Source of the DNA: an uncultured cyanobacterium
GTDB taxonomy: Bacteria; Cyanobacteriota; Cyanobacteriia; PCC-9006; JAAUQQ01
Reading direction: 5' to 3'
Assembly: GCA_963718615.1 (NCBI GenBank)
Contig: OY970368.1
Coordinates: 2,560,001 to 2,624,000, forward strand
Length of the DNA stretch: 64,000 nucleotides
The notes under the pieces: generated by a model
Told to the model about the DNA's origin: nothing
The model's input: only the letters and a program-made list of their open reading frames with translations
Databases searched by the model: none
Shown: one piece after another, positions 3,883 to 18,181 of the stretch
How positions within the stretch are numbered: position 1 is the stretch's first letter
How the letters are laid out: each line of letters begins with the position of its first letter
Program-made: the position numbers and the translations under genes

Positions 3883-3988
3883 GGGGTTAGGCAGATGCTC
3901 AGTAGGATGACTCAAAAGCGGTAGAACCGGAATATCCCTAAAGTTCCCTGATTTATTTGTTGAGAAACGAATTAGGTCGCGCAGGACA

Positions 3989-4052
3989 GCAGAGGCGGCC
4001 ATAAAAGCAGCCATAGAGGCGACTACAGAGGTGAGTAACCATAGAGGCAGCT
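3989..4052. repeat. Degenerate 12-bp tandem repeat (~5 units, consensus ATAGAGGCAGCC)
   Basis: gcagaggcggcc ataaaagcagcc atagaggcgact acagaggtgagt (aacc) atagaggcagct. Confidence 0.5.
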
Positions 4053-4633
4053 ACAATTCCTAGCGAAGTTTCTTTCTTCCAGAAATCTTGCTGATTAATG
4101 AAACTCTGTGGTTCTACCTAAGAAGAATTGCCGACGAGACCGTAGTCCTCTCAGAATAAAATTTCCTAGATTTTACGGATGAAGAAATCTTGCTCAAGTG
4201 AACACCTAAAAAGCTTTAAATTGCCGTTGATTAGGTATTCAAAGCGCCAGAGCCCTGTCTGGAAAAGATTTTTTTGCTTTTGTAACATATTTTGGCTTCA
4301 ACGCTTTGGGGCTCAAGTCTTACAGATACGTATGGTTATTTTTAGGCTCTCTTTTGTATCTGAAATTTTTAAGCTTGTGAAGAATCCGGAAGAATCATCT
4401 CAGCCAAATGTTTGATTTTTTTAATTAAGCCTTTGATGAAATCGGTCGTTCTTCGCGGGACATCTCTCTAAATTACGCAAAGAGAAAATAGAAACATCTA
4501 CGGAATCCCTTTGGGAGATCTTGGTATTCAATAGACTTCAGCAATCTGTATGGATAGGGCTCAACAGGCTTAAATATTCAGTACTGCCATTGTGCATCTA
4601 CATCAAGCTGTTTCCATTTGATCTAACAACAAG

Positions 4634-7117
4634 ATGATGAAACGCCCCCATTGGCCGTTGCGCCAGGGGCTGATTGCGCTGCTGATTTCTAGCGGTTCGG
4701 CGGCTTTGGTCGCTCCGCTGTTGGCGCAAACGGCACCTGGAACAATCATTCGCAATACATTTACAGGCACCTACGACGGGATGCAGGCCCCGGCGGTTTC
4801 CAACGAAGTGACATTAGTGATTTCTGAGGTCGCGGGGATTACGGTCCAAGCCCAGTCTCCGAGCAATCCTGGTCCTGACCCCGATGACAATCTATTTGTG
4901 GATTTTGTCATCACGAATACGGGGAACGATCCCACGACGTTTTTCCTGCCGGATACCGTTACGCTGGGCGGTGCTGGGGCAGCTTCGTTCACGGCTGGAA
5001 CCCTTGTCGTCACGAAGTTCAACGGTACTGCGCTGCCAACGCCTGTGCCTATCCCCAATGGGGGGGCCGAGACTGGAGCGTTTCCCAATGGGGGGTTGCC
5101 CGATGGGGGCTCGATTAATCCTGGTGCAACTGTTGTGGTGCGGGTACCGATTACGGTCAAAGGAACCGCGCAGAAGGGCGATCGCCTCAATGTCTCCCTG
5201 GGGAACACCACCCCTGCCGATGCCCAAAATCAGCCCTATACAGCGAATGGCGGCAGTGTTTATACGGTGGATAATGCCGGGACCGACAATGGGGATAGTA
5301 ATGGGGCTCCGGTGAATGGCGATCGCGAAGCCATGGACACTGCCTCACCCATTGTCGTTGGCGCAACTTTTCAAGCCTTTACCAAAATCCTCTTGGCCCA
5401 GACCTACAGCAATAACCAGACGCCAGGCGTAATCACCGATGACCGGCTTGATTATTGTCTAGCGCTGAACGTAGCGGATACGGTTCCCGAAGAATTAGTT
5501 GATGTGTTGCCGAGCGATCTGAATCCAACGGAGATTTCCCTCGATGGGGTGTTGGATAGCCGCGTTTTGATCGCCGATGCGATCCCAGCGAATATGCAAC
5601 TGACGGCAGCCGCACCCACAGCACCCACGAGCGTTCCGGGCTGGCAGGTCGTGTACACAACCAGCGCGCTTACCACTCCAGCCCATCAAGCGCAATGGAC
5701 CACTACCCGACCTACCACTGGGATTACCCGTGTGGGGTTCGTGATTGATCAGTCCGTTCAGCAGGGCAGCACCATCGGCGGCGGTAGCGATTGCTTTAAG
5801 TTCTCGGTGGAAGCCCAGCCCAGCTTTCCCGGTGGTCGAATTGAAAATATTGCCCAGGTATTTGGCCAATCCCAGCCGGGGCCAGTCCTGGCCAATACAC
5901 CAACCCAATTGGTTTATGACGAATCCGGGGACCAAACCCTCAACAACGGTTTGCTGCGCGACAACCCCGACCCCGAGAGCGGCGGCATTGCAGCGGCCAA
6001 TGGTGGAATCACCAACGGAGTGGCCACGCTAGAGGTGGATGGCGCGGATCCTGGTCGTGGTGCAGATCCAACGGCAAGCGATACGAATCAAGGCTTAGAC
6101 AGCGGTGATAATGCTGGAACCAAGGCCAAGGGCGGTGAAACGCTAATTTTTAATTTGGTGCCTGCGCCGATTAACGGGCCGGACCAGAAACCGGGGGCGA
6201 TCGGACCTAACAACGACAACGACGATTTCACCAGCAAACTGCTGATGCCGCCCGCTGCGCTCGACCCGGCCCTACCACTTAACGATGAGCAAACACCGCC
6301 GGTTACATTTACCAACACCGTCCGCAACAGCAGTATTACCCCCCAAGTAATTTCTTTGTTGCCGACACGACCGATCCAGCCAGACGCATTGCCTGATGGC
6401 ACGGTTGTAACGCTGACCAATCCGGTCAATGGCCAAACCGCCACCTATCGCTATACCGCAGCCGGTGGGTTTGAGTTTGTCTCCGGTGCAGGGGGTCCTA
6501 GCGCAACCCAGCCGGTTCAGCTTCAGGTCGGCACAGGCGAGGCCAGTCAGGCCAGCTATACAGTCGTTGTCAACCTGCCCAGCGCCAAACAGCTACAGGA
6601 ATATCCGATTCCCATTACAGCGTTTGTGGACCAGGGCACACCGGGGTTGGACCCTGATGATCCTGCGAATGTCACAATCAATCGCCTCTACACCGGCTTT
6701 ATTAAGGTTACCAAGGAAGCCCGAATTCTAGATGAAGAGGGTACAACCGAGCTAGTTGGTTTTACCACCGATCAGTCGAAGTTAGCCCCTGAGGTCAAAA
6801 ACGATCGCTTCATCGAATACCGGCTGATCTACAGCAACCTTGCCCAAGCGCAAGGCAGTGGTGCCGACAACATCATCTTACCGGCCACTAACTTTGTCTT
6901 AACCGAAGACGGTAAAGCCAACGGCAACACCTGGTTTGAACTCACCGACGATCCCAACGCTGCCAGTCGTCCGAGCAGCGGATCGGCGACTGCGACCCTC
7001 GGGACGATCGCCACCGTCACCACCGAAGGAGACATTCAAACCTACACCGTTACCGTGCCCGACTTCCAGCCCGGTGAGAGCGGCACGCTGATCTTCCGTC
7101 GTCAAATTCAGAAATAG
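4634..7117 (+). CDS. Secreted DUF11/Ig-fold protein; candidate major fibre subunit
   Basis: Signal peptide; N-terminal TAPGTIIRNT...SNEVTLVI; Ig-like FVITNTGND; C-terminal DUF11-type domain IKVTK..IEYRLIYSN..QPGESGTLIFRRQI. Confidence 0.75.
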   Translation: MMKRPHWPLRQGLIALLISSGSAALVAPLLAQTAPGTIIRNTFTGTYDGMQAPAVSNEVTLVISEVAGITVQAQSPSNPGPDPDDNLFVDFVITNTGNDPTTFFLPDTVTLGGAGAASFTAGTLVVTKFNGTALPTPVPIPNGGAETGAFPNGGLPDGGSINPGATVVVRVPITVKGTAQKGDRLNVSLGNTTPADAQNQPYTANGGSVYTVDNAGTDNGDSNGAPVNGDREAMDTASPIVVGATFQAFTKILLAQTYSNNQTPGVITDDRLDYCLALNVADTVPEELVDVLPSDLNPTEISLDGVLDSRVLIADAIPANMQLTAAAPTAPTSVPGWQVVYTTSALTTPAHQAQWTTTRPTTGITRVGFVIDQSVQQGSTIGGGSDCFKFSVEAQPSFPGGRIENIAQVFGQSQPGPVLANTPTQLVYDESGDQTLNNGLLRDNPDPESGGIAAANGGITNGVATLEVDGADPGRGADPTASDTNQGLDSGDNAGTKAKGGETLIFNLVPAPINGPDQKPGAIGPNNDNDDFTSKLLMPPAALDPALPLNDEQTPPVTFTNTVRNSSITPQVISLLPTRPIQPDALPDGTVVTLTNPVNGQTATYRYTAAGGFEFVSGAGGPSATQPVQLQVGTGEASQASYTVVVNLPSAKQLQEYPIPITAFVDQGTPGLDPDDPANVTINRLYTGFIKVTKEARILDEEGTTELVGFTTDQSKLAPEVKNDRFIEYRLIYSNLAQAQGSGADNIILPATNFVLTEDGKANGNTWFELTDDPNAASRPSSGSATATLGTIATVTTEGDIQTYTVTVPDFQPGESGTLIFRRQIQK

Positions 7118-7126
7118 GAGACCCCC

Positions 7127-7699
7127 ATGAAACCCATTCAGTTTGCGATGAGTGCGGGGTTAGCGGCGATCGCCTCAGTCTTAGCCCTCAACAGTGCCCC
7201 TCTCTTAGCAGAAGTCCAAGCCGGAGAGAGAGGTCCGTTTCTAGCCCAGGCCCAATCCCAGGCAGAGGTTAAGCTCCAGCTCATTGCGGCCAAGCGAGTG
7301 ACCACGACCGATCCCCAAGGACAGCCCCAGATGCGCTGGCAACCCCTAGAGGGCAATGCCGCCGTTCAACCAGGCGACGTGATTCGCTTTACGCTGCGCG
7401 GTAATAACGCAGGAAAAGGCCCAGCTCAGAAGTTAGTCCTGCAACAGCCAATTCCAGCGGGAACTCAGTTTGTGCTGCAATCCGCCCGGATGGTCAAGGG
7501 CTCCTCGGAGATTCTCTACAGCATCGACCAGGGCAAAACCTTTAGCCGCACCCCCGTCGTTACCGTCACCGAAAACGGTCGTGTGGTCGAACGCGCGGCT
7601 CCCCCCGAAGCCTACACCCACATTCAGCTTCGTCTGAGCCAGTCCCTCGCGCCCCAGGCTCAGATTGAAGGGGAATACCAGGTTCGGGTCGGTTCCTAG
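7127..7699 (+). CDS. Small secreted single DUF11 (conserved repeat domain) protein
   Basis: Signal peptide; VQPGDVIRFTLRGNNAG...PIPAGTQFV...SLAPQAQIEGEYQVRV; AGGAG RBS upstream. Confidence 0.75.
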   Translation: MKPIQFAMSAGLAAIASVLALNSAPLLAEVQAGERGPFLAQAQSQAEVKLQLIAAKRVTTTDPQGQPQMRWQPLEGNAAVQPGDVIRFTLRGNNAGKGPAQKLVLQQPIPAGTQFVLQSARMVKGSSEILYSIDQGKTFSRTPVVTVTENGRVVERAAPPEAYTHIQLRLSQSLAPQAQIEGEYQVRVGS

Positions 7700-7771
7700 A
7701 CCGCTGGTGGGCGTATATCTCTTGTCCCTACGCCTTGTTTTTGACCGCACAGCTTTTTCCTAGCAATCATC

Positions 7772-9277
7772 ATGTCAACCCAACGATCCGTGCCTTTGTG
7801 GCTGCGTCGCCTTGCGGTGATGGCGATCGCCAGCGGCCTCGGGATTGTTCCGACTCCTTTGGTCGGCCTCACCCAAATCTCTGAGAGCCCTAAGGCCATC
7901 CTCAATACCGCTGCTTACACCTACCAAACCCCGGACGGCGAGACTGTTCAAGCGATTACGAATCAACTCGAACAACCCCTGATCGATCCCTTCGGGGTCC
8001 TAACCGGCTGTAACGGCGAACTGTTGCCGAGCTATCAAGGCTTTAGCGTCGGCGTCTACGATCCAGATTCCTCCGGCTTAGACCTCGGTCGCCTGACCGA
8101 TTTGACCCGCACGGAACTGCCCGACATTCCCGGTAACGGCATTTCCCGTGGCATTGCCCCCAATGGCCAAAATGCCAATCCCTTCTTTATTGGCGATGAT
8201 GGCCGCTATAGTTTCCTCCTGGATGAGAGCAAAGGTCAGCTTAATGTGGGTCGGTCCTACATCTTGGCGATTAATGCTCCGGATGGTTCGGTCTATGCCG
8301 ATCGCCGCATTCTGTTGACCATCACAGGACTTTCGGGTCGTATCCTCTCCTACCGAGCCACCGCCATTGACGGTCGGCCCCTCAGTACCCTCGACGGTCA
8401 AGATTCCGTCACGGGTGAGCTGGATCTGGAAAACGCAGAAACCCAGGGATTGGCGCTAGCGGTGCTGAATTTCTCTGCTAGTACCTGTGATGCCAGCGAG
8501 GTGCAAATTATTAAGGCGAGCGATCGCGCCGCCGCTGAACCGGGCGATACAGTTATCTATCGTCTCTCGATTCGCAATCTTTCCAGTACAACCCTCACCA
8601 GCCTAGTTACCACAGACATTCTGCCCCCTGGGTTTAAGTTTCTGGAGCGCTCGGCACGGGCCGAAGCGGGTGGCGTAGATGTACCGCTAACCGTCAGCCA
8701 AAACGGTCGCACGGTGACGTTTAATGCAGCGGCTCTCAATCTGCCCACTGCCCAAAATGGTGGAACGGCAGGGGTGCTGAATATTGCCTATGCCGCTCAG
8801 CTTACCCCGGATTCGATTCGGGGGAATGGGGAAAATCTGGCCTCGGTGCAAGGATTACGGGTGGATAATAACTTGGCCGTAAAAGATGGTCCGGCGCGGC
8901 ATAAATTGCGGGTGCGATCGGGCATTCTCTCGGACTGCGGCACAATTTTAGGCCGCGTCTTTGAGGACAAGAACTTTGACGGCGAACAGCAGCCCGGAGA
9001 ACCTGGCATTGCCAACGCCGTGATTATTCTCGACGACGGCAATCGCATCACCACGGACAAAGACGGGTTGTATTCCGTCGCTGGCGTGTTGGCAGGCCAA
9101 CGCACAGGCGTCCTGGATGCCACCTCCGTGACCGGCTACACCCTAGCCCCCAACCAAAAATTTGAAGAGCGCAACAGTCAATCTCGCCTGGTGAATCTTT
9201 CGCCTGGTGGTCTGGCGCGGATGAATTTTGCCGTCACCCCCGCTGTGAAGGAGGCTGAGCCATGCAATTGCAACTAA
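7772..9277 (+). CDS. DUF11 domain + SdrD-B-like domain secreted protein
   Basis: VQIIKASDRAAAEPGDTVIYRLSIRN..TDILPPGF (DUF11); GRVFEDKNFDGEQQPGEPGI...TTDKDGLYS (SdrD B-like). Confidence 0.8.
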   Translation: MSTQRSVPLWLRRLAVMAIASGLGIVPTPLVGLTQISESPKAILNTAAYTYQTPDGETVQAITNQLEQPLIDPFGVLTGCNGELLPSYQGFSVGVYDPDSSGLDLGRLTDLTRTELPDIPGNGISRGIAPNGQNANPFFIGDDGRYSFLLDESKGQLNVGRSYILAINAPDGSVYADRRILLTITGLSGRILSYRATAIDGRPLSTLDGQDSVTGELDLENAETQGLALAVLNFSASTCDASEVQIIKASDRAAAEPGDTVIYRLSIRNLSSTTLTSLVTTDILPPGFKFLERSARAEAGGVDVPLTVSQNGRTVTFNAAALNLPTAQNGGTAGVLNIAYAAQLTPDSIRGNGENLASVQGLRVDNNLAVKDGPARHKLRVRSGILSDCGTILGRVFEDKNFDGEQQPGEPGIANAVIILDDGNRITTDKDGLYSVAGVLAGQRTGVLDATSVTGYTLAPNQKFEERNSQSRLVNLSPGGLARMNFAVTPAVKEAEPCNCN

Positions 9278-12200
9278 AATCAATTCCCCATTTCCTGATT
9301 CGTCTTGGTTTTCAGCTTCTGACCAGTGGCTCAGTCCTCTGTTTGATAGCGCTACCGACCTTGGCTGAAGTTCAGTCCCAGTCCTCAGCCCCTCCCAATC
9401 CAGACGTTGCTCAATCCGCTGGAATCGAGGCAACCGACGCAACCGCGTTCTGCCCCTGCGAACTCGAACTCAAAATCCTCAATCTCAATGAAGATGATGT
9501 TCTAGACGCCCCCTCCGGCATCATCGTCCTCAGCCACGACGCCCGCAAAACTGTCGAGCTGCGGGTCAATGGCGAAGTGGTGGAAGAAACCCTAATCGGT
9601 CGCCGGGAAAACGACGATGGCAAGGGCATCAGTCGCTCCACCTGGTACGGCGTACCGCTGCAATCGGGCAAAAATACTGTTACCGCCACCACCAACGATG
9701 GCGAAACCAAAATCGTCACCGTGATGGTTCGGGGCAAACCCCAACGCCTCACCGTCAGCACCGTCGAGACCCGGATCCCTGCTGATGGTCGCTCAGTTAT
9801 GACGGTCACCGGCCAGTTGCTGGACGAAGCAGGCAATCTGACCAATCGCAATACCCTGGTGACGGTCTCGGCGAATGGAGGGGAATTTGTTGGGGAAGAT
9901 GGCGATCGCCTACAAGACGGATTCCAAGTCGAAGCCCAAGATGGCAAATTTACCGCACAACTGCGATCGGGTCTTAAAGCCCAGCGGGTTCAAATCCGTG
10001 CCGCCGTAGGCAGCGGCCCCATCGGCAGCACCCCCCTTGAAGCCTTTACCCAAGCCGAGTTTGAAACCAGTCTGCGTCCCTCCATCGCCACGGGGGTCAT
10101 TAGCCTGCGTCTCGGTGGCGAAGGTAACGATTTCTACGGCAAGCTGCGGGACTTCTTGCCCTTGGACGGTGACAATGATTTTACCGCCGACCTCAAGGGC
10201 CAAGCCTTTGCCATGGGGGCGGTGGGGGATTGGTTATTGACGGGAGCTTACAATAGCGATCGCAACCTCAACGAAAGCTGCGACGAAACCAACCGCCTCT
10301 TCCGTGCCTCGGATCCCTGCGACAACGACTATCCCACCTACGGCGACGGTTCCCGATCGGAGATCCTGACCCCTTCCCTTGATAGCCTCTACCTGAAGTT
10401 CGAACGAACCTCTCCCGTGGCTCGGGCTGGAACCGATTCGTTCCTTTGGGGCGATTATAAGACTGACCAGTTTGCGCGGCGATCGCAACAGTTTACGGCC
10501 CTCACCCGCGAACTCCACGGTTTTTCCGGCAACTACAACTGGGATAACTTACAAATCTCTGGTTTCTTCGGCAACAACGTTCAAGGCTTCCAGCGGGACA
10601 CCATTAGCCCCGATGGCACCAGTGGATATTACTTCCTTTCCCGACGGCTGTTGCTCGAAGGCAGCGAAGATGTTTTTGTCGAACTAGAAGAACTCGATCG
10701 CCCCGGCACGGTGCTTCAGCGCATTCCCCTGCTTCGGGGTCAGGATTACACGATTGATTACGATCGCGGCACATTGCTGTTTACCGACCCAGTTCTACGC
10801 ACGGACATCAGTGCCGAAGGATTCACGCTGGTTCGTCGCATTGTCGCCACCTACCAGTACGACGATGGGGGTTCCGACAACAAGATCTACGGCGGTCGCT
10901 TACAGTACAACTTCTCGCGGGATAAGGGCCGTGAAACCTGGTTGGCGGGAACCTATCTGAGAGAAGACAAAGGCTCAAGGGATTACAGTCTCTTCGGTTT
11001 GGATACCTTAATCAGCCTAGGCGACAGGGGCACGCTGGTGGGCGAGTATGCGCGTTCGGACAACGACTCAGAAATTCTGGGCAATGTCGAGGGCAGCGCC
11101 TATCGCTTTGAGTTGGATGGCGAACTCACCGACAGCCTCTTGGGCCGCGCCTACTATCGCCATGCGGATACTGGCTTTAGCAACAACGCCACGGTCAGCT
11201 TTGTTCCTGGCCAAACGCGCTACGGTGCTCAGCTCAATGCAAGCATCGCCGATCGCACGCAGTTGCGATTCCAATACGATCATGAAAAGAACGAAGGCAA
11301 TGTTCCTCAGCCTCGGCTTACCTTCGGGGATCTGTTCGATGCCCAGGAAGAGGCCACACCGGGGGTCGAAGTCGATAATTCCCTGACCACGATTTCCGCC
11401 GGAGTTTTGCAGAAAATTGGTCCTGCCGATGTCAGTGTGGACTGGGTTTATCGCGATCGCAATGACAACAAGTCCCCTGGTATCTTCGACGAAAACTCCC
11501 AGCAGTTGCGATCGCGACTTCTCGTTCCCTTAAATGATCGCCTGAGTTTCCTGGCTCAAAACGAGACGACGCTTTCGGCGGATGTGGACCCGGTGTTTAG
11601 CGATCGCACTCTCCTCGGCCTCAATTGGAAAGTCTGGGATGGGGTCAACGCCCAGTTAGCCCAGCAATTTTTCCATCGGGGTCAGTACGCAGGCAAACAA
11701 ATCACCAGTTTGAATGTCACAGGTGACTATAATCTCAGCCGCGATACGCTCCTGCGGGGACGCTATACGGTTCTGAATGGGGCAGAAGACCTGCAAATGC
11801 AGGGAGCCGTGGGGATTCAGCACAATATCCCGATCAATCCTCACCTCAAGGCAGACCTAACCTTCGAGCGAGTATTCGGCAATCTTCTTGGGGACAATGC
11901 CGCCGCCGATGTCTTTGCTCAGCCCTTTGCCTTTGGCCAAAGTGCAGCGGCCCTCGGCATTCCCGACGGCACAAGCTACAGCGGTGGACTAACCTATGCC
12001 ACCGATCGCGTCCAAGCCAAAATCCGCTACGAACGCCGCAATTCCCCCCAGGGCAATAACCAGGTTCTTACCGCTGCCGCCGGAGGTAAAATCAACGATT
12101 CACTCACGGGACTTTTCAATTACAAACAGGCCCGAGCCGCAAATCAAACCCTAGAGAATTTGGGCACCACAGCCTATCTTAAAGCCGGTCTCGCCTACCG

Positions 12201-12978
12201 CAATCCCCAAAGCGATAAATTCAACGCGCTCCTACGCTACGAATATCGCAAAAATCCCTCGACGATTCCCGATAGCATTCTGTTTGGCAGCGGCACGGGC
12301 TACCATGAACATCTGTTTGGCGTCGAAGCGCTTTATACCCCCAATTGGCAATGGGAATTCTTTGGTAAATTGGCCCTACGAAATAGCGTTTCGTTCCTGG
12401 CAGATGATCTCGTCGGCAGCAGTACCGTGACCCTAGCGCAAGGTCGGGTGAGCTATAAATTTGCCCAGCGCTGGGATGCCACAGGGGAGTTCCGCTGGCT
12501 CAATCAAGGCAGTGCCAACTACGGTGAAACGGGCTTCCTGGGTGAATTAGGCTACTACGTGAATCCCAATCTGCGCCTTGCGGGGGGGTATTCCTTGGGG
12601 CGGGCGAGCGATCGCGACTTCGATGGCAGCCGTACCGTTGGCGGTCCCTACTTCGGGGTTTCGCTCAAACTTGACAACCTCTTCCAAGGCTTCGGCTTAC
12701 AGAATTGGCCGGAACCAGCATTCAACCAACCCGCTAGCGTTGAACCGAACATCAACCCAACGCCTGAATCAACGCCTGAATCAACGTCTGAATCAACCCC
12801 TGAATCCCCTGACCCTTTCATCGAAAACCTCACACCGGAAACTCCCGATGAACGTCCCCCTGTTCCTCAATTGGAACCCCAACTCGAACCTTTCACTCCT
12901 GAAGAATCTGCTAGCCCCACTGGAGAGAACTCCGGTCATTCTGCTCCCGTATCTGCCCCTGTACCTGCCCTGTGGTGA
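9262..12978 (+). CDS. Large outer-membrane beta-barrel protein with N-terminal Ig domains and Pro/Glu-rich tail
   Basis: Signal peptide; Big-1-like IPADGRS..VTGQLLDEAGN; YPTYGDGS and GQDYTIDYDRGTLLF motifs; several hundred residues of amphipathic beta-strands ending GGPYFGVSLKL; overlaps upstream gene. Confidence 0.7.
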   Translation: MQLQLKSIPHFLIRLGFQLLTSGSVLCLIALPTLAEVQSQSSAPPNPDVAQSAGIEATDATAFCPCELELKILNLNEDDVLDAPSGIIVLSHDARKTVELRVNGEVVEETLIGRRENDDGKGISRSTWYGVPLQSGKNTVTATTNDGETKIVTVMVRGKPQRLTVSTVETRIPADGRSVMTVTGQLLDEAGNLTNRNTLVTVSANGGEFVGEDGDRLQDGFQVEAQDGKFTAQLRSGLKAQRVQIRAAVGSGPIGSTPLEAFTQAEFETSLRPSIATGVISLRLGGEGNDFYGKLRDFLPLDGDNDFTADLKGQAFAMGAVGDWLLTGAYNSDRNLNESCDETNRLFRASDPCDNDYPTYGDGSRSEILTPSLDSLYLKFERTSPVARAGTDSFLWGDYKTDQFARRSQQFTALTRELHGFSGNYNWDNLQISGFFGNNVQGFQRDTISPDGTSGYYFLSRRLLLEGSEDVFVELEELDRPGTVLQRIPLLRGQDYTIDYDRGTLLFTDPVLRTDISAEGFTLVRRIVATYQYDDGGSDNKIYGGRLQYNFSRDKGRETWLAGTYLREDKGSRDYSLFGLDTLISLGDRGTLVGEYARSDNDSEILGNVEGSAYRFELDGELTDSLLGRAYYRHADTGFSNNATVSFVPGQTRYGAQLNASIADRTQLRFQYDHEKNEGNVPQPRLTFGDLFDAQEEATPGVEVDNSLTTISAGVLQKIGPADVSVDWVYRDRNDNKSPGIFDENSQQLRSRLLVPLNDRLSFLAQNETTLSADVDPVFSDRTLLGLNWKVWDGVNAQLAQQFFHRGQYAGKQITSLNVTGDYNLSRDTLLRGRYTVLNGAEDLQMQGAVGIQHNIPINPHLKADLTFERVFGNLLGDNAAADVFAQPFAFGQSAAALGIPDGTSYSGGLTYATDRVQAKIRYERRNSPQGNNQVLTAAAGGKINDSLTGLFNYKQARAANQTLENLGTTAYLKAGLAYRNPQSDKFNALLRYEYRKNPSTIPDSILFGSGTGYHEHLFGVEALYTPNWQWEFFGKLALRNSVSFLADDLVGSSTVTLAQGRVSYKFAQRWDATGEFRWLNQGSANYGETGFLGELGYYVNPNLRLAGGYSLGRASDRDFDGSRTVGGPYFGVSLKLDNLFQGFGLQNWPEPAFNQPASVEPNINPTPESTPESTSESTPESPDPFIENLTPETPDERPPVPQLEPQLEPFTPEESASPTGENSGHSAPVSAPVPALW
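12759..12806 (+). repeat. 4 x 12-bp coding tandem repeat (TPES)
   Basis: aacgcctgaatc aacgcctgaatc aacgtctgaatc aacccctgaatc. Confidence 0.85.
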
Positions 12979-12989
12979 TGAGGTGAATT

Positions 12990-15900
12990 GTGATGAATAA
13001 ACTCATGAATCGATCGCAGCGCAAACGTCTGCACAACCTATTTCAGAAGCTGCCTTGGCTTGCAGGCTGGGTCACGGGAGCTGCACTGCTGGCTCAGACG
13101 CCTTTAGTCCTAGCGGCTGGCGAAATTCAGGTCAAAGTCGAATTTAACCCGATTACGATCACCCAAGGAGATTCTTCGAGTCTGACCTTGACAATTCGCA
13201 ATAACGAACCCAGCCCGTTAAATAATGTCAACTTAAATAAGGCTTTACCAGCAGGATTAGCCATTGATACCTCCAAGGCCATTACACAAAATAGCTGTAA
13301 CTTTACCTTGGCCAATACGACGGCTAACCTCAATATTACTGACGGTACCTTACCGGCCTTTGATACGGGATCTGGCACGCCGGGACTCTGTATTTTGGAA
13401 CTGCCCGTAATTGGTAAAAAAGCACCGGGTTCGTCCGTAACACTGCAAATTGGCGTGGGTGAATTCAGTGCCGGAGGTTTTAGCAATTCTGCTGCGGCCC
13501 AAAACACCATTACGGTAAATCAGTTAGGCAATTTAGGTTCCACAATGGCCTTTATTCCGACTGAACTTCCCGCTGGTGGTGCTACTAAATTCCGTTTAAC
13601 ACTTCCTAATAGCACGGGTAAAGTCCTCAATAATGCGACATTTACGAATGGCTTTACCATGCCTGCTGGGTTCACCTTACGGGCGGGAAGTTTAAACAAT
13701 ACCTGTGGCGGCAGTGTGAGCATTACAGGAACTCCACCTACCATTAAGCTCATCAGCGGCACAATTCCTACCAGTGGTTGTGTGATCGAATTTGAGATGG
13801 ATGGGCCTTTCACAGAACAAACCTTTGGCCCAGTGAGTTGGGCTGCAGGAGATTTGGTTACTGATTTAGAGGTCAGCAATAATGCGGCTAGCTCAAATAC
13901 GGGTAGCATTGTTGCGGGCATGAAAATTAGCCAAAGCTTCAATCGCAACAATGTCTTTATTAACGAAGCATCTACCCTCACGATCCGGATTCGCAATGCC
14001 AACGATACTGCTGTCAACAATGCGAATTTGCAAAGCCTGATTAGTGCGAGCAATGGCGGTGTTCTGAGCGAATTGCAACTGGTTAATGGCACAGGCAATA
14101 TCAATAGCAACTGTCCGACCACACCCAGTGCAACCTACAACGGTACCAATGGCCAGTTAAATTTCACCAATGTTTCTATTCCAGCCGCAACTCTTGGCCC
14201 AAACCCAGCAGCGAAGGTCGCGGAATGTCAAATTACAATCCAGGTCATCACCGACAAAGATGGTATTGGGACTTATACGAGTGCGATCGCAGCCAATCAA
14301 CTCGCGACCAACCAAACCGCTGCGACCAATACTTCGCTCATCGTTACTGATCTCGTCGGAGATGGGGGCAATGGTGTTAGCTTTGGCTTTGGTTTCGGTC
14401 CTGTGGGGGGAGGATTTGCCTCCTACGAAGTTGCCGCCAGCAATCGCGGTCGCCTCAGAATTACGTTGAATAACGTCGCCGGTGAGACCTTGACTGGGGT
14501 CGGGATTGGCGGTACGGGAATTGCGCTGGAAACTGGACTGCGGATTGCGGATGCAGGCGTTTTTAACAATACCTGTACAGCGAATGATGCTGATATCATT
14601 GCCGCATTGAATGCCACCTCCATTACGCTCACTAGCGCTACGATTAACCGTCGCGGTAGCTGTTCCTTTGAGATCAATGTGGTCAGCGATCAGTTTAAGC
14701 TAGGACCCGGTTATGCCGCGAGCGTGGCGGCGGGCGTCGTAACAACCGCTCCCGTTACGGGGCAAGCAGGACGAACCTATAGCAATGCCGCTGGGAGTTC
14801 TGGGCCTAACTTTTTGGAAGTGACCGACTATCTCAACATTATCCCCAGTATGGCCACGAGCACCGTGGCTCCCAATGCCGATGCCCGGATTAAACTGCGG
14901 TTGACCAACTCCGAGGATCAGGCCAAAAGCCAACTGCGGTTGCGCTATAGACTGCCCTTTGCGATCGCCCTCACCCCCGACTTCTTCGCTGGACCCGGCT
15001 GCGGCATCGATGCGAGTGCCTTCCAAGTGGTTGAAGTCAGTCCCGGCGTGTTTGAACTGCAAGCGGATAACATCCAGATTCCTGCAAGAGGCACCACTGG
15101 ACCGACGGACACCGGCAATGCCCAGGATGGCGTTTGCGATGTCGCCTTTGATGTTCAGGCACCGGGCACCCCTGGAGGACAAACAGTCACCGTTCCCCCG
15201 AATGTTCTGCAAAACACAGATGGTACCCAGCAAAACCGCACCTCCCGTTCGACCAGCTTTACCGTACAACCGCTCAATCTCAATCTGAGCCAAAGCATCA
15301 TCAACGAAGAGATTGGGGCCGGTGAGGCCGTGGATTTGGTCAAGGGTGGGCAGCCTGCGATGCTTATCATTACGTTGAACAATCCAGGCAATCCCGTTCC
15401 ACTGACCAATATTGTCCTGAACGACACCTTAGAGGATCCCAAAGGGCTGATTTATCCGGGGGGGCAACCCACCACCACCTGTACCGGCGCAGGGGGTCCG
15501 GCAACGGCCACCGTGGATGAGGCAACCAAATCCTTTCGCCTAGAGGGAGCCGATTTAGCCTCGGGCCAGTCCTGTATTCTGCGAGTTCCGGTCACGACCT
15601 TAGCGGTTGATCAGCTCCAGAATATTGTTCCGGCAGGAGCGGCAGTTTCTGCCGAAGGCGCGAAAACCAACCAGGATGATGACCAAATTCAGGTCAGTTC
15701 CAACCTCGGTTTGGTCAAAGCCTTCTCGCCCACAACGATCCAAACCGGCGAAACCGCACGCCTGACCCTAACGGTTTTGAATGCAACCACAGCGGGTTAC
15801 AACGATGTACGGCTGACCGATAACCTGCCTGAGGGGCTAACGCTTGCCAGTAATCCCAATGTGACCAGCACCTGCGGTGCAACTTCTGCTCCTGGCGATG

Positions 15901-16670
15901 GTGCTGTGATTCAAGTCAACAATGGCGCTGTTAATGCCAATGCGGTCTGTTGGGTAGAAGCGGACGTCACATCCCTCATTGCCAATCCAGGGGGCTACGT
16001 CAACGCGATTCCAGTGGGGGGTCTCAAGGCAGGTAGCTTCCAAAATACTGAACCCGCCGAAGCTACGCTGTTCGTCAATGGCACCACCATCGAGCAACCC
16101 AATCTGCGTCTTGTTAAACGCATCACTGAACTGAAAACACCCGTCCGACCGGGTTACGCTGAACAAACGACAGCTATTACCAGCGTCAACAACTTTACGC
16201 CGGCGGCTGGTCCTGATGCGGACAATGCACCGGGCTGGCCTAATCCGTTGGATGCTAGCGGTATTAGTAGCTATATCAAAGGAGCCTTTAATACTAGCCA
16301 AGTTCCGGGAGGACAATCAGCGTTTCTTGTTTCCGGTATGGAAATTGAATACACCGGTTATTACCTCTCCAACGGCACCGTCAGTGCAGGCAACACCAGC
16401 GTTTGCGACTTTGTCCCGGCGAATACAACCTATGTTCCAGGCTCGTTGGTTTGGGAAAAAGGTGATGGTACAGAAACGCCCCTGAGTGACGCAGTGGGTG
16501 CAGCCGGTGGCTTCTATGCCAATGGCGAAAGCCTCCCCGGCTCCTGTGTTGGCACGAATAATAACAAAGGTGCAGTCGTGGTGAACTTGGGTAATTTACC
16601 TCAATCCACTGGCCCAGGCGCTCCGGCAGCGTCCTATGGCAAGATTCGCTTCCGGGTAAAAGTAGACTAG
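12990..16670 (+). CDS. Multi-Ig (DUF11-like repeat) secreted adhesin; candidate tip subunit
   Basis: Signal peptide; ~7 tandem Cys-pair Ig repeats (F.P..I..G..S.LTLTI.N...LP.GL...NTC...C); C-terminal LRLVKRIT..IEYT..CDFVP..YGKIRFRVKVD; GAGGTGA RBS. Confidence 0.75.
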   Translation: MMNKLMNRSQRKRLHNLFQKLPWLAGWVTGAALLAQTPLVLAAGEIQVKVEFNPITITQGDSSSLTLTIRNNEPSPLNNVNLNKALPAGLAIDTSKAITQNSCNFTLANTTANLNITDGTLPAFDTGSGTPGLCILELPVIGKKAPGSSVTLQIGVGEFSAGGFSNSAAAQNTITVNQLGNLGSTMAFIPTELPAGGATKFRLTLPNSTGKVLNNATFTNGFTMPAGFTLRAGSLNNTCGGSVSITGTPPTIKLISGTIPTSGCVIEFEMDGPFTEQTFGPVSWAAGDLVTDLEVSNNAASSNTGSIVAGMKISQSFNRNNVFINEASTLTIRIRNANDTAVNNANLQSLISASNGGVLSELQLVNGTGNINSNCPTTPSATYNGTNGQLNFTNVSIPAATLGPNPAAKVAECQITIQVITDKDGIGTYTSAIAANQLATNQTAATNTSLIVTDLVGDGGNGVSFGFGFGPVGGGFASYEVAASNRGRLRITLNNVAGETLTGVGIGGTGIALETGLRIADAGVFNNTCTANDADIIAALNATSITLTSATINRRGSCSFEINVVSDQFKLGPGYAASVAAGVVTTAPVTGQAGRTYSNAAGSSGPNFLEVTDYLNIIPSMATSTVAPNADARIKLRLTNSEDQAKSQLRLRYRLPFAIALTPDFFAGPGCGIDASAFQVVEVSPGVFELQADNIQIPARGTTGPTDTGNAQDGVCDVAFDVQAPGTPGGQTVTVPPNVLQNTDGTQQNRTSRSTSFTVQPLNLNLSQSIINEEIGAGEAVDLVKGGQPAMLIITLNNPGNPVPLTNIVLNDTLEDPKGLIYPGGQPTTTCTGAGGPATATVDEATKSFRLEGADLASGQSCILRVPVTTLAVDQLQNIVPAGAAVSAEGAKTNQDDDQIQVSSNLGLVKAFSPTTIQTGETARLTLTVLNATTAGYNDVRLTDNLPEGLTLASNPNVTSTCGATSAPGDGAVIQVNNGAVNANAVCWVEADVTSLIANPGGYVNAIPVGGLKAGSFQNTEPAEATLFVNGTTIEQPNLRLVKRITELKTPVRPGYAEQTTAITSVNNFTPAAGPDADNAPGWPNPLDASGISSYIKGAFNTSQVPGGQSAFLVSGMEIEYTGYYLSNGTVSAGNTSVCDFVPANTTYVPGSLVWEKGDGTETPLSDAVGAAGGFYANGESLPGSCVGTNNNKGAVVVNLGNLPQSTGPGAPAASYGKIRFRVKVD

Positions 16671-16758: not shown

Positions 16759-16918
16759 TATCAAAGCTCTGTCGCAGGATAGACCCCGCCTATTTCGCTG
16801 GGATGAAGATGAAATAAATGCGGAACATTTGGATCTGACCCTGGTCACTAGAAAGAATCCAGACTGGCAATTTTTCCGGTCTATCCTTTGCAATGTTGCA
16901 ATTTTTGATGAGGCTGAT

Positions 16919-18181
16919 ATGACTTCTTTCTCTAGTTCTGTAATGAATCAGACGGCGCGATCGCTCGCCCTCGGACTAGGCGTACTCACTGGCGCATTGC
17001 CCCTGGCGATCGCAACCGCATTACCGAGCCAAGCCCAAACTACCTTTGCCGATGTCAGCAGCACCTACTGGGCTGAAACCTACATCACAACGCTCGCCCA
17101 ACGGGGGATCATCAGCGGTTTCCCCGATGGCAGCTTTGGTCCCGACCAACCGGTGACTCGGGCTCAGTTCGCTGCCTTGGTCCAAAAGGCCTTCCCCCAA
17201 GCTGCCGCCACCCGCAGCGTAATGAATTTTGGGGATGTTCCCGGCAATTATTGGGCTACGCCTGCGATTCAAACGGCCTATACCACTGGCTTTCTCAGCG
17301 GTTACCCCGACAATAGCTTCCAGCCCAACCAGAATATTCCTCGGGTGCAAGCGTTGGTTTCCTTGGCCAATGGACTGAACTATGCTCCTTCCACTTCGGT
17401 CAATACCATTCTGGGAATCTATCAAGATGCTGCGGCAATTCCTGACTATGCCCAAAACAGCGTTGCTGCCGCAACGGAACAGCGGATGGTCGTGAATTAC
17501 CCTAATGTGGCTTTCCTCAATCCCAATCGTCCTGCGACTCGGGCCGAGGTTGCTGCTTTCATCTACCAAGCCCTGACGCAACAGGGAACCGTTGCTAGCA
17601 TTGACTCGCCCTATGTAGCAGGTGTCTCTACAACGCCCGTTGCCCAGGTACCCCAAAGCGTGACGGTTCCCGCTGGGACCGTGATTCCCCTGCGGTATGA
17701 TGCGGCAGACAAAATCTACGTTGCGCCGGATGAGCCTAACCCGGTTCCCGTCACGCTCTTGACCGATCGCAGCGTGCAGACCCAAAATGGGCAGGTTTTA
17801 ATCCCAGCCAATAGTAAAGTTGTCGGTGAACTGCGATCGACCAATGGAGGTAGCCAGTTCTATGCACAACGAATTGAGTTAGCAGATGGCCGCCAGTATG
17901 CCGTTAACGCCAGTTCTAATGTGATCACCGAGACCGAAACCATTCGGAAGGGTATCAATGCTGGTCGAGTGGTGCGAGATGCAGCCATTGGCGCTGGAGC
18001 TGCTGCGGCCATTGCCGGTGTGACGGGCGATCGCACCATCGAAGCCAAGGAGGTTCTAGGAGGTGCGGGGATTGGGGCGATCGCCGGAGTCTTCCTAGAG
18101 AAAAACAGCGTTGACCTGATTGTGATCAAACCGGAAACCGCCTTAAATCTCACGATTGATAGTGCCTTTGACGTGCAATAG
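16919..18181 (+). CDS. S-layer homology (SLH) domain protein
   Basis: Three SLH repeats (FADV..YWA..I..L..RGIISGFPDGSF.PD.PVTRAQFA); C-terminal beta domain with glycine-zipper segment. Confidence 0.9.
   Translation: MTSFSSSVMNQTARSLALGLGVLTGALPLAIATALPSQAQTTFADVSSTYWAETYITTLAQRGIISGFPDGSFGPDQPVTRAQFAALVQKAFPQAAATRSVMNFGDVPGNYWATPAIQTAYTTGFLSGYPDNSFQPNQNIPRVQALVSLANGLNYAPSTSVNTILGIYQDAAAIPDYAQNSVAAATEQRMVVNYPNVAFLNPNRPATRAEVAAFIYQALTQQGTVASIDSPYVAGVSTTPVAQVPQSVTVPAGTVIPLRYDAADKIYVAPDEPNPVPVTLLTDRSVQTQNGQVLIPANSKVVGELRSTNGGSQFYAQRIELADGRQYAVNASSNVITETETIRKGINAGRVVRDAAIGAGAAAAIAGVTGDRTIEAKEVLGGAGIGAIAGVFLEKNSVDLIVIKPETALNLTIDSAFDVQ

Follow-up and report, generated by a model that had tools for sequence, protein, structure and literature searches.

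A cyanobacterial envelope operon with a predicted giant outer-membrane barrel protein and a putative DUF11-type domain split between secreted subunits

A 64,000-nucleotide stretch of the genome of an uncultured cyanobacterium (contig OY970368.1 of assembly GCA_963718615.1, positions 2,560,001 to 2,624,000; 'the window' below, with positions counted from its first letter) carries a five-gene operon, P0001 to P0005, whose genes fill 4634-16670 on the same (+) strand and whose products all have a signal-peptide-like start. The operon looks like a self-contained envelope module for an outer-membrane-anchored stalk or fibre, and the model that we favour, as on balance probable, is that its separate secreted proteins are joined end to end via a split CnaA-like (DUF11/CLIPPER) immunoglobulin (Ig) domain that is ligated in trans. 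Under this model all components would cross the inner membrane by Sec; an acceptor would present a C-terminal domain that has a Lys and a catalytic Glu or Asp and ends before its last two strands, and the mature N-terminus of a donor would supply those two strands as an Asn-bearing hairpin. The hairpin of the base, P0003, would enter the open domain at the C-terminus of either P0001 or P0005, and that of P0001 would enter P0005 or another P0001, each junction then being locked by an autocatalytic intermolecular Lys-Asn isopeptide bond with the neighbouring acid as catalyst, in effect a natural SpyTag/SpyCatcher-like lock. P0003 would be bound to the giant barrel protein P0004, with which it is fused in other lineages, and in some lineages to peptidoglycan as well; P0005, an acceptor only, would be the distal adhesin, giving the polarity of chaperone-usher pili; P0001, in one copy or in many, would extend the chain from base to tip; P0002 would hold or cap the hairpin reversibly; and the stalk would leave the cell via the barrel lumen.

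Chain termini and invariant residues

P0001 (4634..7117, 827 aa), the putative donor-and-acceptor extender or shaft subunit, consists of a signal peptide, an Asn-bearing hairpin, three Ig-like domains of which the second is DUF7925, and a C-terminal truncated DUF11-like domain. Its putative donor hairpin spans residues 36-63 (4739..4822; Asn41 codon 4754-4756) and its putative acceptor domain residues 689-827 (6698..7114; Lys694 codon 6713-6715, Glu758 codon 6905-6907); the chain stops directly after a '..pGesGt..F....' strand, ending in translation at ...FQPGESGTLIFRRQIQK. P0002 (7127..7699, 190 aa), a small secreted protein with a single DUF11 domain that might cap or chaperone the hairpin non-covalently, stops at the same strand (...LAPQAQIEGEYQVRVGS). 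P0003 (7772..9277, 501 aa), the putative donor-only base, has a signal peptide, an Asn hairpin (residues 42-70, 7895-7981; Asn45 codon 7904-7906), a CnaB-like region, a complete DUF11 domain (8501-8929) and an SdrD_B domain (8954-9184). The Asn motifs of the two hairpins, GTIIRN41 in P0001 and AILN45 in P0003, each lie a few residues past the signal-peptide-like segment. The P0003 gene overlaps by 16 nt that of P0004 (9262..12978, 1238 aa), a predicted outer-membrane protein with two Big_1/intimin-like Ig domains (9469-10071), a barrel (10072-12681) that contains an insert (10585-10863), and a tail (12682-12978). P0005 (12990..16670, 1226 aa), the putative acceptor-only tip, follows a signal peptide with five DUF7933/DUF11 repeats and a truncated C-terminal domain (16077-16667; Lys1043 codon 16116-16118, Asp1140 codon 16407-16409) that ends at ...SYGKIRFRVKVD.

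The residues on which the model depends are close to invariant. Across 187 distinct sequences of the P0001 family N41, S56, N57 and K694 are each kept in 187/187, and position 758 is always acidic (E in 171, D in 16). The donor N45 is present in all 71 members of the P0003 family, while K1043 of the P0005 C-terminal domain is found in 45/45 and D1140 in 44/45, the remaining sequence having a gap. The terminal domains of P0001 and P0005 thus contain the Lys and the acid, and the final strands that would bear the Asn are missing from them. A complete version of the same arrangement exists within the operon: the internal DUF11 domain of P0003 keeps K248, D282 and N355 in 71/71 sequences, a Lys-Asp-Asn triad within one domain that matches Lys715/Asp748/Asn806 of the CLIPPER (DUF11) structure 9IFR (domain 708-828, as given in the available part of PMC12617251). 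Read from the sequence, the spacing from N41 to the hairpin end at I63 in P0001 also fits the tail from Asn806 to 828 in 9IFR.

The points at which the chains end are equally constrained. P0002 orthologues terminate at YQV.V[RKQ](S) in 74/74 cases, and P0005 orthologues at RF+.V. in 40/44; two of the four exceptions (L075, L037) have open reading frames that reach the end of the fetched locus, and the other two (L028, L052) have unrelated C-termini. Since these termini and residues are conserved across families, they are not due to chance. In P0005 orthologues, which range from 656 to 1217 aa, conservation is confined to the C-terminal ~190 residues, the N-terminal part being variable. Six P0003 orthologues (in L033, L047, L051, L056, L058 and L078) are 800-900 aa long, with ~400 extra residues past the hairpin, and in these long variants the Asn motif still stands directly after the signal peptide.

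Family assignments place most of these proteins among known Ig-type modules. Pfam DUF11 (PF01345) matches P0002 (25.2 bits), P0003 (35.1) and P0005 (37.9) above the curated cut-off of 24.6, as does NCBIfam TIGR01451 (35.9, 43.4 and 44.3 bits against a cut-off of 24); across Pfam and NCBIfam P0003 has DUF11 and SdrD_B, and P0005 has DUF7933 in five stretches together with DUF11. When aligned to a complete DUF11 domain with hhalign, the three truncated C-terminal domains match its B-C core (96%, 83% and 78%), the P0001 domain (689-827 against the P0003 DUF11) at 78% over only 23 columns; the isolated P0002 domain aligns to positions 10-94 of the 114 in the Pfam DUF11 profile. DUF7925 (PF25546) occupies residues 255-438 of P0001 at 172.2 bits against a cut-off of 26.5; it has one copy in the host genome and occurs in 40/401 sampled genomes of the phylum and 23/151 genera, one family having it in 28/46. 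An intramolecular isopeptide bond is predicted for DUF7925 in the available part of PMC12617251 (Q8YS00 K264). In the 50-sequence alignment of the P0001 family the corresponding Lys, within residues 245-260 (~5366-5413), is not an invariant column, unlike N41 and K694, and going by that alignment the internal bond may not be universal in the family.

Syntenic, minimal and fused systems

Of 575 P0001 relatives found, 80 cyanobacterial loci were kept and searched for the partner genes by tblastn, which recovered P0002 and P0003 in 74 loci each, P0004 in 68 loci and, in 44, the C-terminal domain of P0005. Every partner found lies downstream of P0001 on the same strand, and most misses fall at contig or locus ends. 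Homologues carry the names of Nostoc, Calothrix, Leptolyngbya and Phormidesmis. Four Nostoc metagenome-assembled genome (MAG) loci (L042, L067, L071, L073; ~9950-12380) contain orphan 799-aa P0001 paralogues with Asn, Lys and acid intact and, with full flanks available, no partner gene within 10 kb downstream; these may represent additional shaft subunits that work with an operon at another place in the genome.

A paralogous system of only three genes in the same genome (L089, G000:C1:1399000-1418900; genes at 1406861-1415720, that is L089:7862-16721) reduces the proposed arrangement to its minimum. Its base protein (361 aa, 44% identical to P0003, E 2e-63) places an Asn hairpin directly before a complete DUF11 domain and SdrD_B; its barrel protein (1237 aa) scores 1150 bits against the profile of the P0004 family barrel; and its tip (1303 aa), an acceptor only, has a C-terminal domain with the Lys in LFKRIT and the Asp in CDPLP that ends at ...GFVRFNTQIP. 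Neither a P0001-like nor a P0002-like gene was found at this locus. One donor and one acceptor on different proteins is an arrangement in which complementation must occur in trans.

A second line of evidence comes from the barrel family. A search with the profile of the barrel (alignment A3, which is the 45-sequence P0004 alignment A2 cut to the barrel) returned 3027 representative clusters at E <= 0.001, 1067 of which also pass E <= 1e-30; many members are 1500-3300 aa long with the barrel at the C-terminus. In the fusions that were scanned the barrel is preceded by DUF11/DUF7507/DUF7927 repeats, CarboxypepD_reg, SdrD_B, sometimes SLH, and a Big_1/Invasin_D3 domain, and judged by this domain order the long barrel proteins are a P0003-like module fused to a P0004-like protein. 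They begin after the signal peptide with the hairpin motif ..PPGT.I.N.A.A.Y.D..G...S..V..V; a regular expression for it, which missed several obvious cases, matched within the first 110 residues of 34/92 long representatives, against 0-8/92 in eight control windows. These fused hairpin-barrel proteins end in the barrel itself, and therefore have no acceptor in cis. The named relatives are annotated as 'DUF11 domain-containing' or hypothetical proteins of Desulfobacterales, Thermodesulfobacteriota and 'Deltaproteobacteria' MAGs. The locus around one such fusion, from a distant metagenomic lineage (L083), repeats all four roles: an acceptor-only protein of 584 aa ending ...GKVYFKVKID; a 167-aa P0002 homologue (36% identity, E 2e-19); a 603-aa protein that combines an N-terminal Asn hairpin with a C-terminal Lys/Asp domain ending ...WVLRFKVTID; and the fusion, 2041 aa with the order hairpin, four DUF11, CarboxypepD_reg, SdrD_B, SPOR, Big_1 and barrel.

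P0004 itself belongs to no Pfam barrel family, its only Pfam matches being weak ones to Big_1 and Invasin_D3 (the latter 25 bits, below the cut-off of 33). An AlphaFold2 (AF2) model of residues 36-1150 built with A2 (predicted local distance difference test score, pLDDT, 71; predicted template-modelling score, pTM, 0.57) has two Ig domains and, after them, 40 long strands, counted from the DSSP list, and a plug-like insert after strand 7-8, where a cluster of short strands at model residues 421-481 forms a small beta-sandwich. The Ig domains resemble those of intimin and invasin (Z ~12). The modelled barrel aligns with FimD (Z 11.9, 355 residues), PapC (11.0), SlpA (11.0) and SprA (9.6, 474 residues), and with many porins at Z-scores similar to those of FimD and PapC; Foldseek gives SlpA of Deinococcus as the best match (1.8e-8), with SprA also among the matches. 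Taken from the model, these fold matches show no more than a very large barrel. Beyond the barrel, residues ~1141-1238 of P0004 (12682-12978) form a repeat-like tail rich in Pro, Glu, Ser and Thr (TPES-type units) that ends ...PALW; in L089 a comparable acidic tail closes the barrel protein (...PRALF), and the base finishes with a PEPEPEP tail (...VPALF). A third barrel match in the host genome (L088, G000:C1:3630130-3630795, - strand; E 4.4e-22, profile positions 627-868) lies in a 438-aa frame with one internal TAA and may be a barrel fragment or pseudogene.

P0002 fits the model in a different capacity from the other truncated proteins. Where the catalytic Asp would stand, cyanobacterial P0002 has Q107 in 75/75 sequences, and its strand-A Lys, K56, is kept in only 47/75; because the catalytic acid is missing and the Lys poorly conserved, P0002 is, as far as its residues tell, not a covalent acceptor in these organisms. 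Among the three systems compared it is present in the two that have a donor-and-acceptor subunit (the operon and L083) and absent from the minimal L089. Given the loss of the acid and this co-occurrence, P0002 would most likely be a reversible cap or chaperone for the hairpin of a subunit that could otherwise react with itself.

Much of what an earlier note on this DNA had read from the letters holds across the families. Its statement that the proteins starting at 4634, 7127 and 12990 end at one particular strand agrees exactly with the translations and extends family-wide in P0002 and P0005; the Asn hairpins that it placed after the signal peptides of the 4634 and 7772 products, and the Lys and acid that it saw retained in 4634 and 12990, proved to be the invariant residues described above. 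Its assignment of 7772 as the base is borne out by the overlap with the barrel gene and by the fusion of an equivalent hairpin, DUF11 and SdrD_B module to the barrel in distant relatives, and that of 12990 as an acceptor-only tip by the pairing of a variable N-terminal part with a conserved C-terminal domain. The synteny survey that it had proposed finds the five genes syntenic across cyanobacterial loci.

The neighbours of the operon are unrelated to it. Neighbouring genes in the window encode a biotin carboxylase, a beta-helix protein, an SLH protein, a uracil-DNA glycosylase and others; the immediate flanks are a 912-aa right-handed beta-helix/NosD-like protein (1276-4014, - strand) and a 450-aa SLH-domain protein (16829-18181, + strand). 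Flanking genes of the window, those of envelope type included, occur beside only 0-1 of the 80 operon loci elsewhere. Upstream of the operon lies an intergenic region of 620 nt (4015-4633), with a G+C content of 0.45 (bin 4001-5000) against ~0.55 around it. A promoter and terminator scan gave fewer sites than in shuffled sequence, and none in 4015-4633 was promoter-like above the shuffle expectation.

Structure models and competing explanations

An AF2 monomer of P0001 (alignment A1, 50 sequences; pLDDT 85.2, pTM 0.65) leaves the hairpin undocked in cis, with short strands at 38-41 and 59-62 and pLDDT below 50 for 41-59. Structural alignment of this model with VIA-align relates residues 245-510 to the CnaA domains of Gram-positive pilins (PitA and BcpA, Z 9.8; SpaD, 9.2) and to the CLIPPER structure 9IFR (Z 9.1, root-mean-square deviation 2.6, 122 of 123 residues aligned), and residues 509-688 to Fn3/WxLIP-like sandwiches (Z ~8); with these two regions placed elsewhere, the putative acceptor domain is left as P0001 689-827, which was barely sampled by the Foldseek and VIA runs, as they used the whole model. 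Co-folding of P0001 668-827 with P0001 33-70 gave an interface score (ipSAE) of 0.58 (runs 0.23, 0.58 and 0.63), against 0.01 for the best of three controls, with at least 81% of contacts shared between runs and a partner pLDDT of at least 55. This lends weak support to docking of the hairpin in the acceptor.

Several observations weigh against the split-domain model, or against parts of it. The mark reached in this co-fold is also reached by 58/80 solved complexes and 2/110 mismatched pairs, counts that hold only roughly here since a custom alignment was used; at ipSAE <=0.60 it is reached by only 7/80 solved complexes and by both of the passing mismatches, so that as a prediction a weak pass of this kind would be wrong more often than right unless the guess was likely beforehand. 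The C-terminal domain of P0001 is modelled at pLDDT ~90 in the AF2 monomer, that is without the hairpin, and may on this model be complete on its own. The homology of the hairpins to DUF11 strands F-G is statistically unsupported: hhalign against a complete DUF11 domain returned nothing, the only match among hairpin hidden Markov models (HMMs) was that between the P0001 and P0003 hairpins (score 2.2, independent E-value 2), with nothing significant against complete domains, and Pfam matched neither the isolated hairpins nor the isolated C-terminal domains of P0001 and P0005. For a significant profile match the hairpins are too short, and the strand labels (E, F, G) are accordingly a reasoned reading of pattern and spacing in the sequences and not the product of a significant alignment. 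Nor is mutual information between hairpin and acceptor enriched: of the 50 best hairpin pairs 13 fall in the acceptor domain, where 9.4 would be expected (corrected for average product over 187 P0001 sequences, effective number 89), the phylogenetic signal being dominant in this calculation. The proposed role of P0002 is not general: of 22 non-cyanobacterial P0002-like proteins, all ending at the same strand, 11 were matched by a regular expression, and at their catalytic position D stands in 5, N in 5 and K in 1, so that some relatives keep the Asp. P0001 may also pair with P0005 only, and not with another P0001.

The central proposal of the earlier note, head-to-tail complementation with a covalent lock, accordingly stands in part. 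The roles of the subunits and the arrangement in trans, seen in L089 and the fusions, agree with it, whereas the co-fold of the 4634 hairpin with its own C-terminal domain is weak and the strand homology not significant. The domain boundaries are similarly divided, the truncated domains aligning to the DUF11 core but the hairpins and the isolated P0001 and P0005 domains having no Pfam match; and the AF2 monomer shows a hairpin that is not folded back in cis together with a C-terminal domain that is confident without a donor. Its description 'usher-like' is sound as an analogy, but no Usher or PapD-like chaperone family was detected among Pfam matches at E up to 0.1 in the five operon proteins.

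The alternative that fares best, though we consider it improbable, retains the same joining of subunits and places the chain between peptidoglycan and outer membrane, as a tether or fibre for which P0004 would be an anchor or porin. Peptidoglycan-binding domains do occur between stalk and barrel according to Pfam, SLH in one fusion (P0181) and SPOR in that of L083, and OmpA is listed among the precomputed Pfam domains of a further fused relative (P0228), with no position given; judged by these domains, the stalk might stay in the periplasm, which counts against export through the lumen. The best Foldseek match of the barrel, SlpA, is likewise a connector between outer membrane and peptidoglycan. 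On the other hand, the tip has the hallmarks of an exposed adhesin, with variable repeats and only the C-terminal domain conserved, a ~40-strand barrel with a plug-like insert would not be needed for a mere anchor, and a passenger at the N-terminus, separated from the first barrel strand by a periplasmic domain, would fit an autotransporter-like exit. We give a low probability to a connection with the fibril arrays in the periplasm of gliding Oscillatoria.

Nearly as well placed, and to our minds also improbable, is the possibility that the truncated C-terminal domains act as signals by which the barrel recognises or exports these proteins, the N-terminal motif serving in docking or quality control and strand complementation being non-covalent or absent. 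Substrates of type IX secretion carry C-terminal Ig-like domains as signals. In the operon all three putative substrates end in a conserved beta domain and are encoded next to a giant barrel; the barrel matches include SprA of the type IX system, by both VIA-align and Foldseek; and the isolated P0001 and P0005 C-terminal domains have no Pfam DUF11 call. Against this, the type IX C-terminal domain models (type A and type B) match none of the five proteins in NCBIfam, nor P0001, P0002 or P0005 in Pfam; a sorting role would leave unexplained the invariant Lys, acid and Asn placed as in the CLIPPER triad; and the base has a hairpin but no C-terminal signal.

We think it quite unlikely that the operon encodes ordinary independent fibrillar adhesins with complete domains, whose shared termini are family quirks without meaning for assembly. 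DUF11 proteins are common as stalks of fibrillar adhesins, according to the available text of PMC12617251, and neither the hairpin searches nor the mutual information reached significance, but the strict synteny in cyanobacteria, the recurrence of the four roles in the distant L083, the base-barrel fusions of other lineages and the one-donor/one-acceptor arithmetic of L089 all count against it. Least likely of all is closure in cis, in which the P0001 hairpin would fold onto its own C-terminal domain to give a circularly permuted or nested, internally locked monomer and no chain, an arrangement like that of the tip pilins RrgA and GBS104. Donor and acceptor do stand on one chain of P0001 and co-vary in presence, the co-fold cannot separate cis from trans, and a discontinuous domain with an isopeptide has a precedent in Pfam GBS104-like_Ig (137-211 plus 587-717; PMC12617251, available part), yet AF2 leaves the hairpin undocked, donor-only and acceptor-only partners are conserved, and L089 and the barrel fusions have no cis option.

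One candidate link was dropped: a disulphide between P0003 and P0004, since neither the C-terminal Cys motif of P0003 nor the N-terminal one of P0004 is conserved.

If the trans-ligation model is true, it would add a route of surface-fibre assembly in outer-membrane bacteria beside chaperone-usher, type IV, type V and curli, explain how fibrillar adhesins of Gram-negative bacteria can be covalently continuous without sortase, and give a function to the large giant-barrel family. The hosts are ecologically important, including filamentous cyanobacteria and MAGs of sulfate-reducer type, and adhesion, mats, gliding and symbiosis rely on surface structures that are poorly known. Natural donor/acceptor pairs of differing specificity would also be useful as protein-ligation tools, and the hypothesis of ligation in trans is directly testable by simple biochemistry. 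It is tempting to go further and envisage a widespread, hitherto unrecognised class of sortase-free covalent pili or adhesin stalks in diderms (cyanobacteria, Desulfobacterota-type lineages and others), built from split-CLIPPER pairs, anchored and exported by ~40-strand barrels that would be the largest known, with a head-to-tail P0001 fibre proof against sodium dodecyl sulfate and heat and with orthogonal ligation pairs; this extended proposal we regard as speculative and rather doubtful.

Comparison with known assembly systems

In logic the operon parallels the chaperone-usher pilus, in which subunits are joined by donor-strand complementation (PMC9715654, available part). In both cases an incomplete Ig fold would be completed by the N-terminal segment of the next subunit, with an acceptor-only tip, a donor-and-acceptor shaft and a last subunit that ends the chain, and both use an outer-membrane barrel of their own that contains a beta-domain insert, P0004 matching FimD and PapC. 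The usher barrel has 24 strands, against ~40 in the model of P0004. The operon differs further in that its donor is a two-strand hairpin and not a single strand, and in its multi-domain CnaA/DUF11 subunits with a predicted covalent lock.

That lock has its nearest counterparts in TasA/BsaA fibres and archaeal threads, with which the operon shares an N-terminal donor followed by an intermolecular isopeptide bond, the latter predicted in our case. BsaA forms such a bond with N35, E56 and K74, and alanine mutants lose the oligomers (available part of the preprint 10.1101/2024.11.04.621531); archaeal threads, as described in the available part of PMC9715654, run head to tail by donor-strand complementation, are linked by isopeptide bonds and have no usher. 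P0001 has an analogous set in N41, E758 and K694, which is a functional likeness and not membership, and no TasA-type family was found in the operon proteins with Pfam or NCBIfam. In contrast to these fibres, the operon uses the DUF11/CLIPPER fold, in a diderm host with a dedicated giant barrel, and distributes donor-only, acceptor-only and donor-and-acceptor roles over separate multi-domain proteins of 500-1200 aa.

Sortase pili (SpaA, RrgB, BcpA, PitA) are likewise built of CnaA/CnaB Ig subunits with isopeptides, to which the middle domain of P0001 is related at Z 8-9.8, and their subunits are linked covalently through Lys, as is proposed for the operon. The five operon proteins, to which the Pfam search was confined, contain no sortase domain and no LPXTG-type C-terminus, ending instead in sequences such as ...RRQIQK, ...VRVGS, ...PCNCN and ...RVKVD, and the proposed linkage is an autocatalytic Lys-Asn bond in a split domain, not a transpeptidation. 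With CLIPPER domains the operon shares the fold class of 9IFR and, as predicted here, the same Lys/Asp/Asn chemistry; in its available text PMC12617251 surveys intramolecular isopeptide bonds only. In engineered split domains a peptide and a truncated domain are able to reconstitute and ligate (PMC6539128 and PMC5333627, available parts), and the split in the operon would differ from SpyTag/SpyCatcher and the RrgA-derived pairs in being natural, across gene products, and for assembly.

In size P0004 falls in the class of giant single-chain barrels, SprA (36 strands), SlpA and a predicted superfamily of 38 and 40 strands. The outer-membrane families of 38 and 40 strands predicted in the available part of PMC8346858 are compatible with its ~40 strands, a comparison by strand count alone. 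P0004 differs from the solved barrels in having no detectable sequence relation to them: PDB sequence searches with P0004, the P0001 C-terminal domain and the A3 and A1 profiles gave no meaningful match, and P0004 matches no 12-strand autotransporter or inverse-autotransporter barrel family.

A search of the literature, which did not cover subscription journals and supplements, found no description of the operon, of a split CLIPPER domain, or of DUF7925/DUF7933 beyond the isopeptide survey; the DUF11 and DUF1194 items in PMC13297417 and PMC10272220 are unrelated to the operon. The elements taken singly are known already: the complementation logic from chaperone-usher and type V systems, the lock from BsaA/TasA and the threads, and the building blocks from sortase pili and CLIPPER adhesins. 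What is probably new is their union, in which donor-strand-and-lock assembly would take place in a diderm, use a fold new to it and have a giant barrel dedicated to it.

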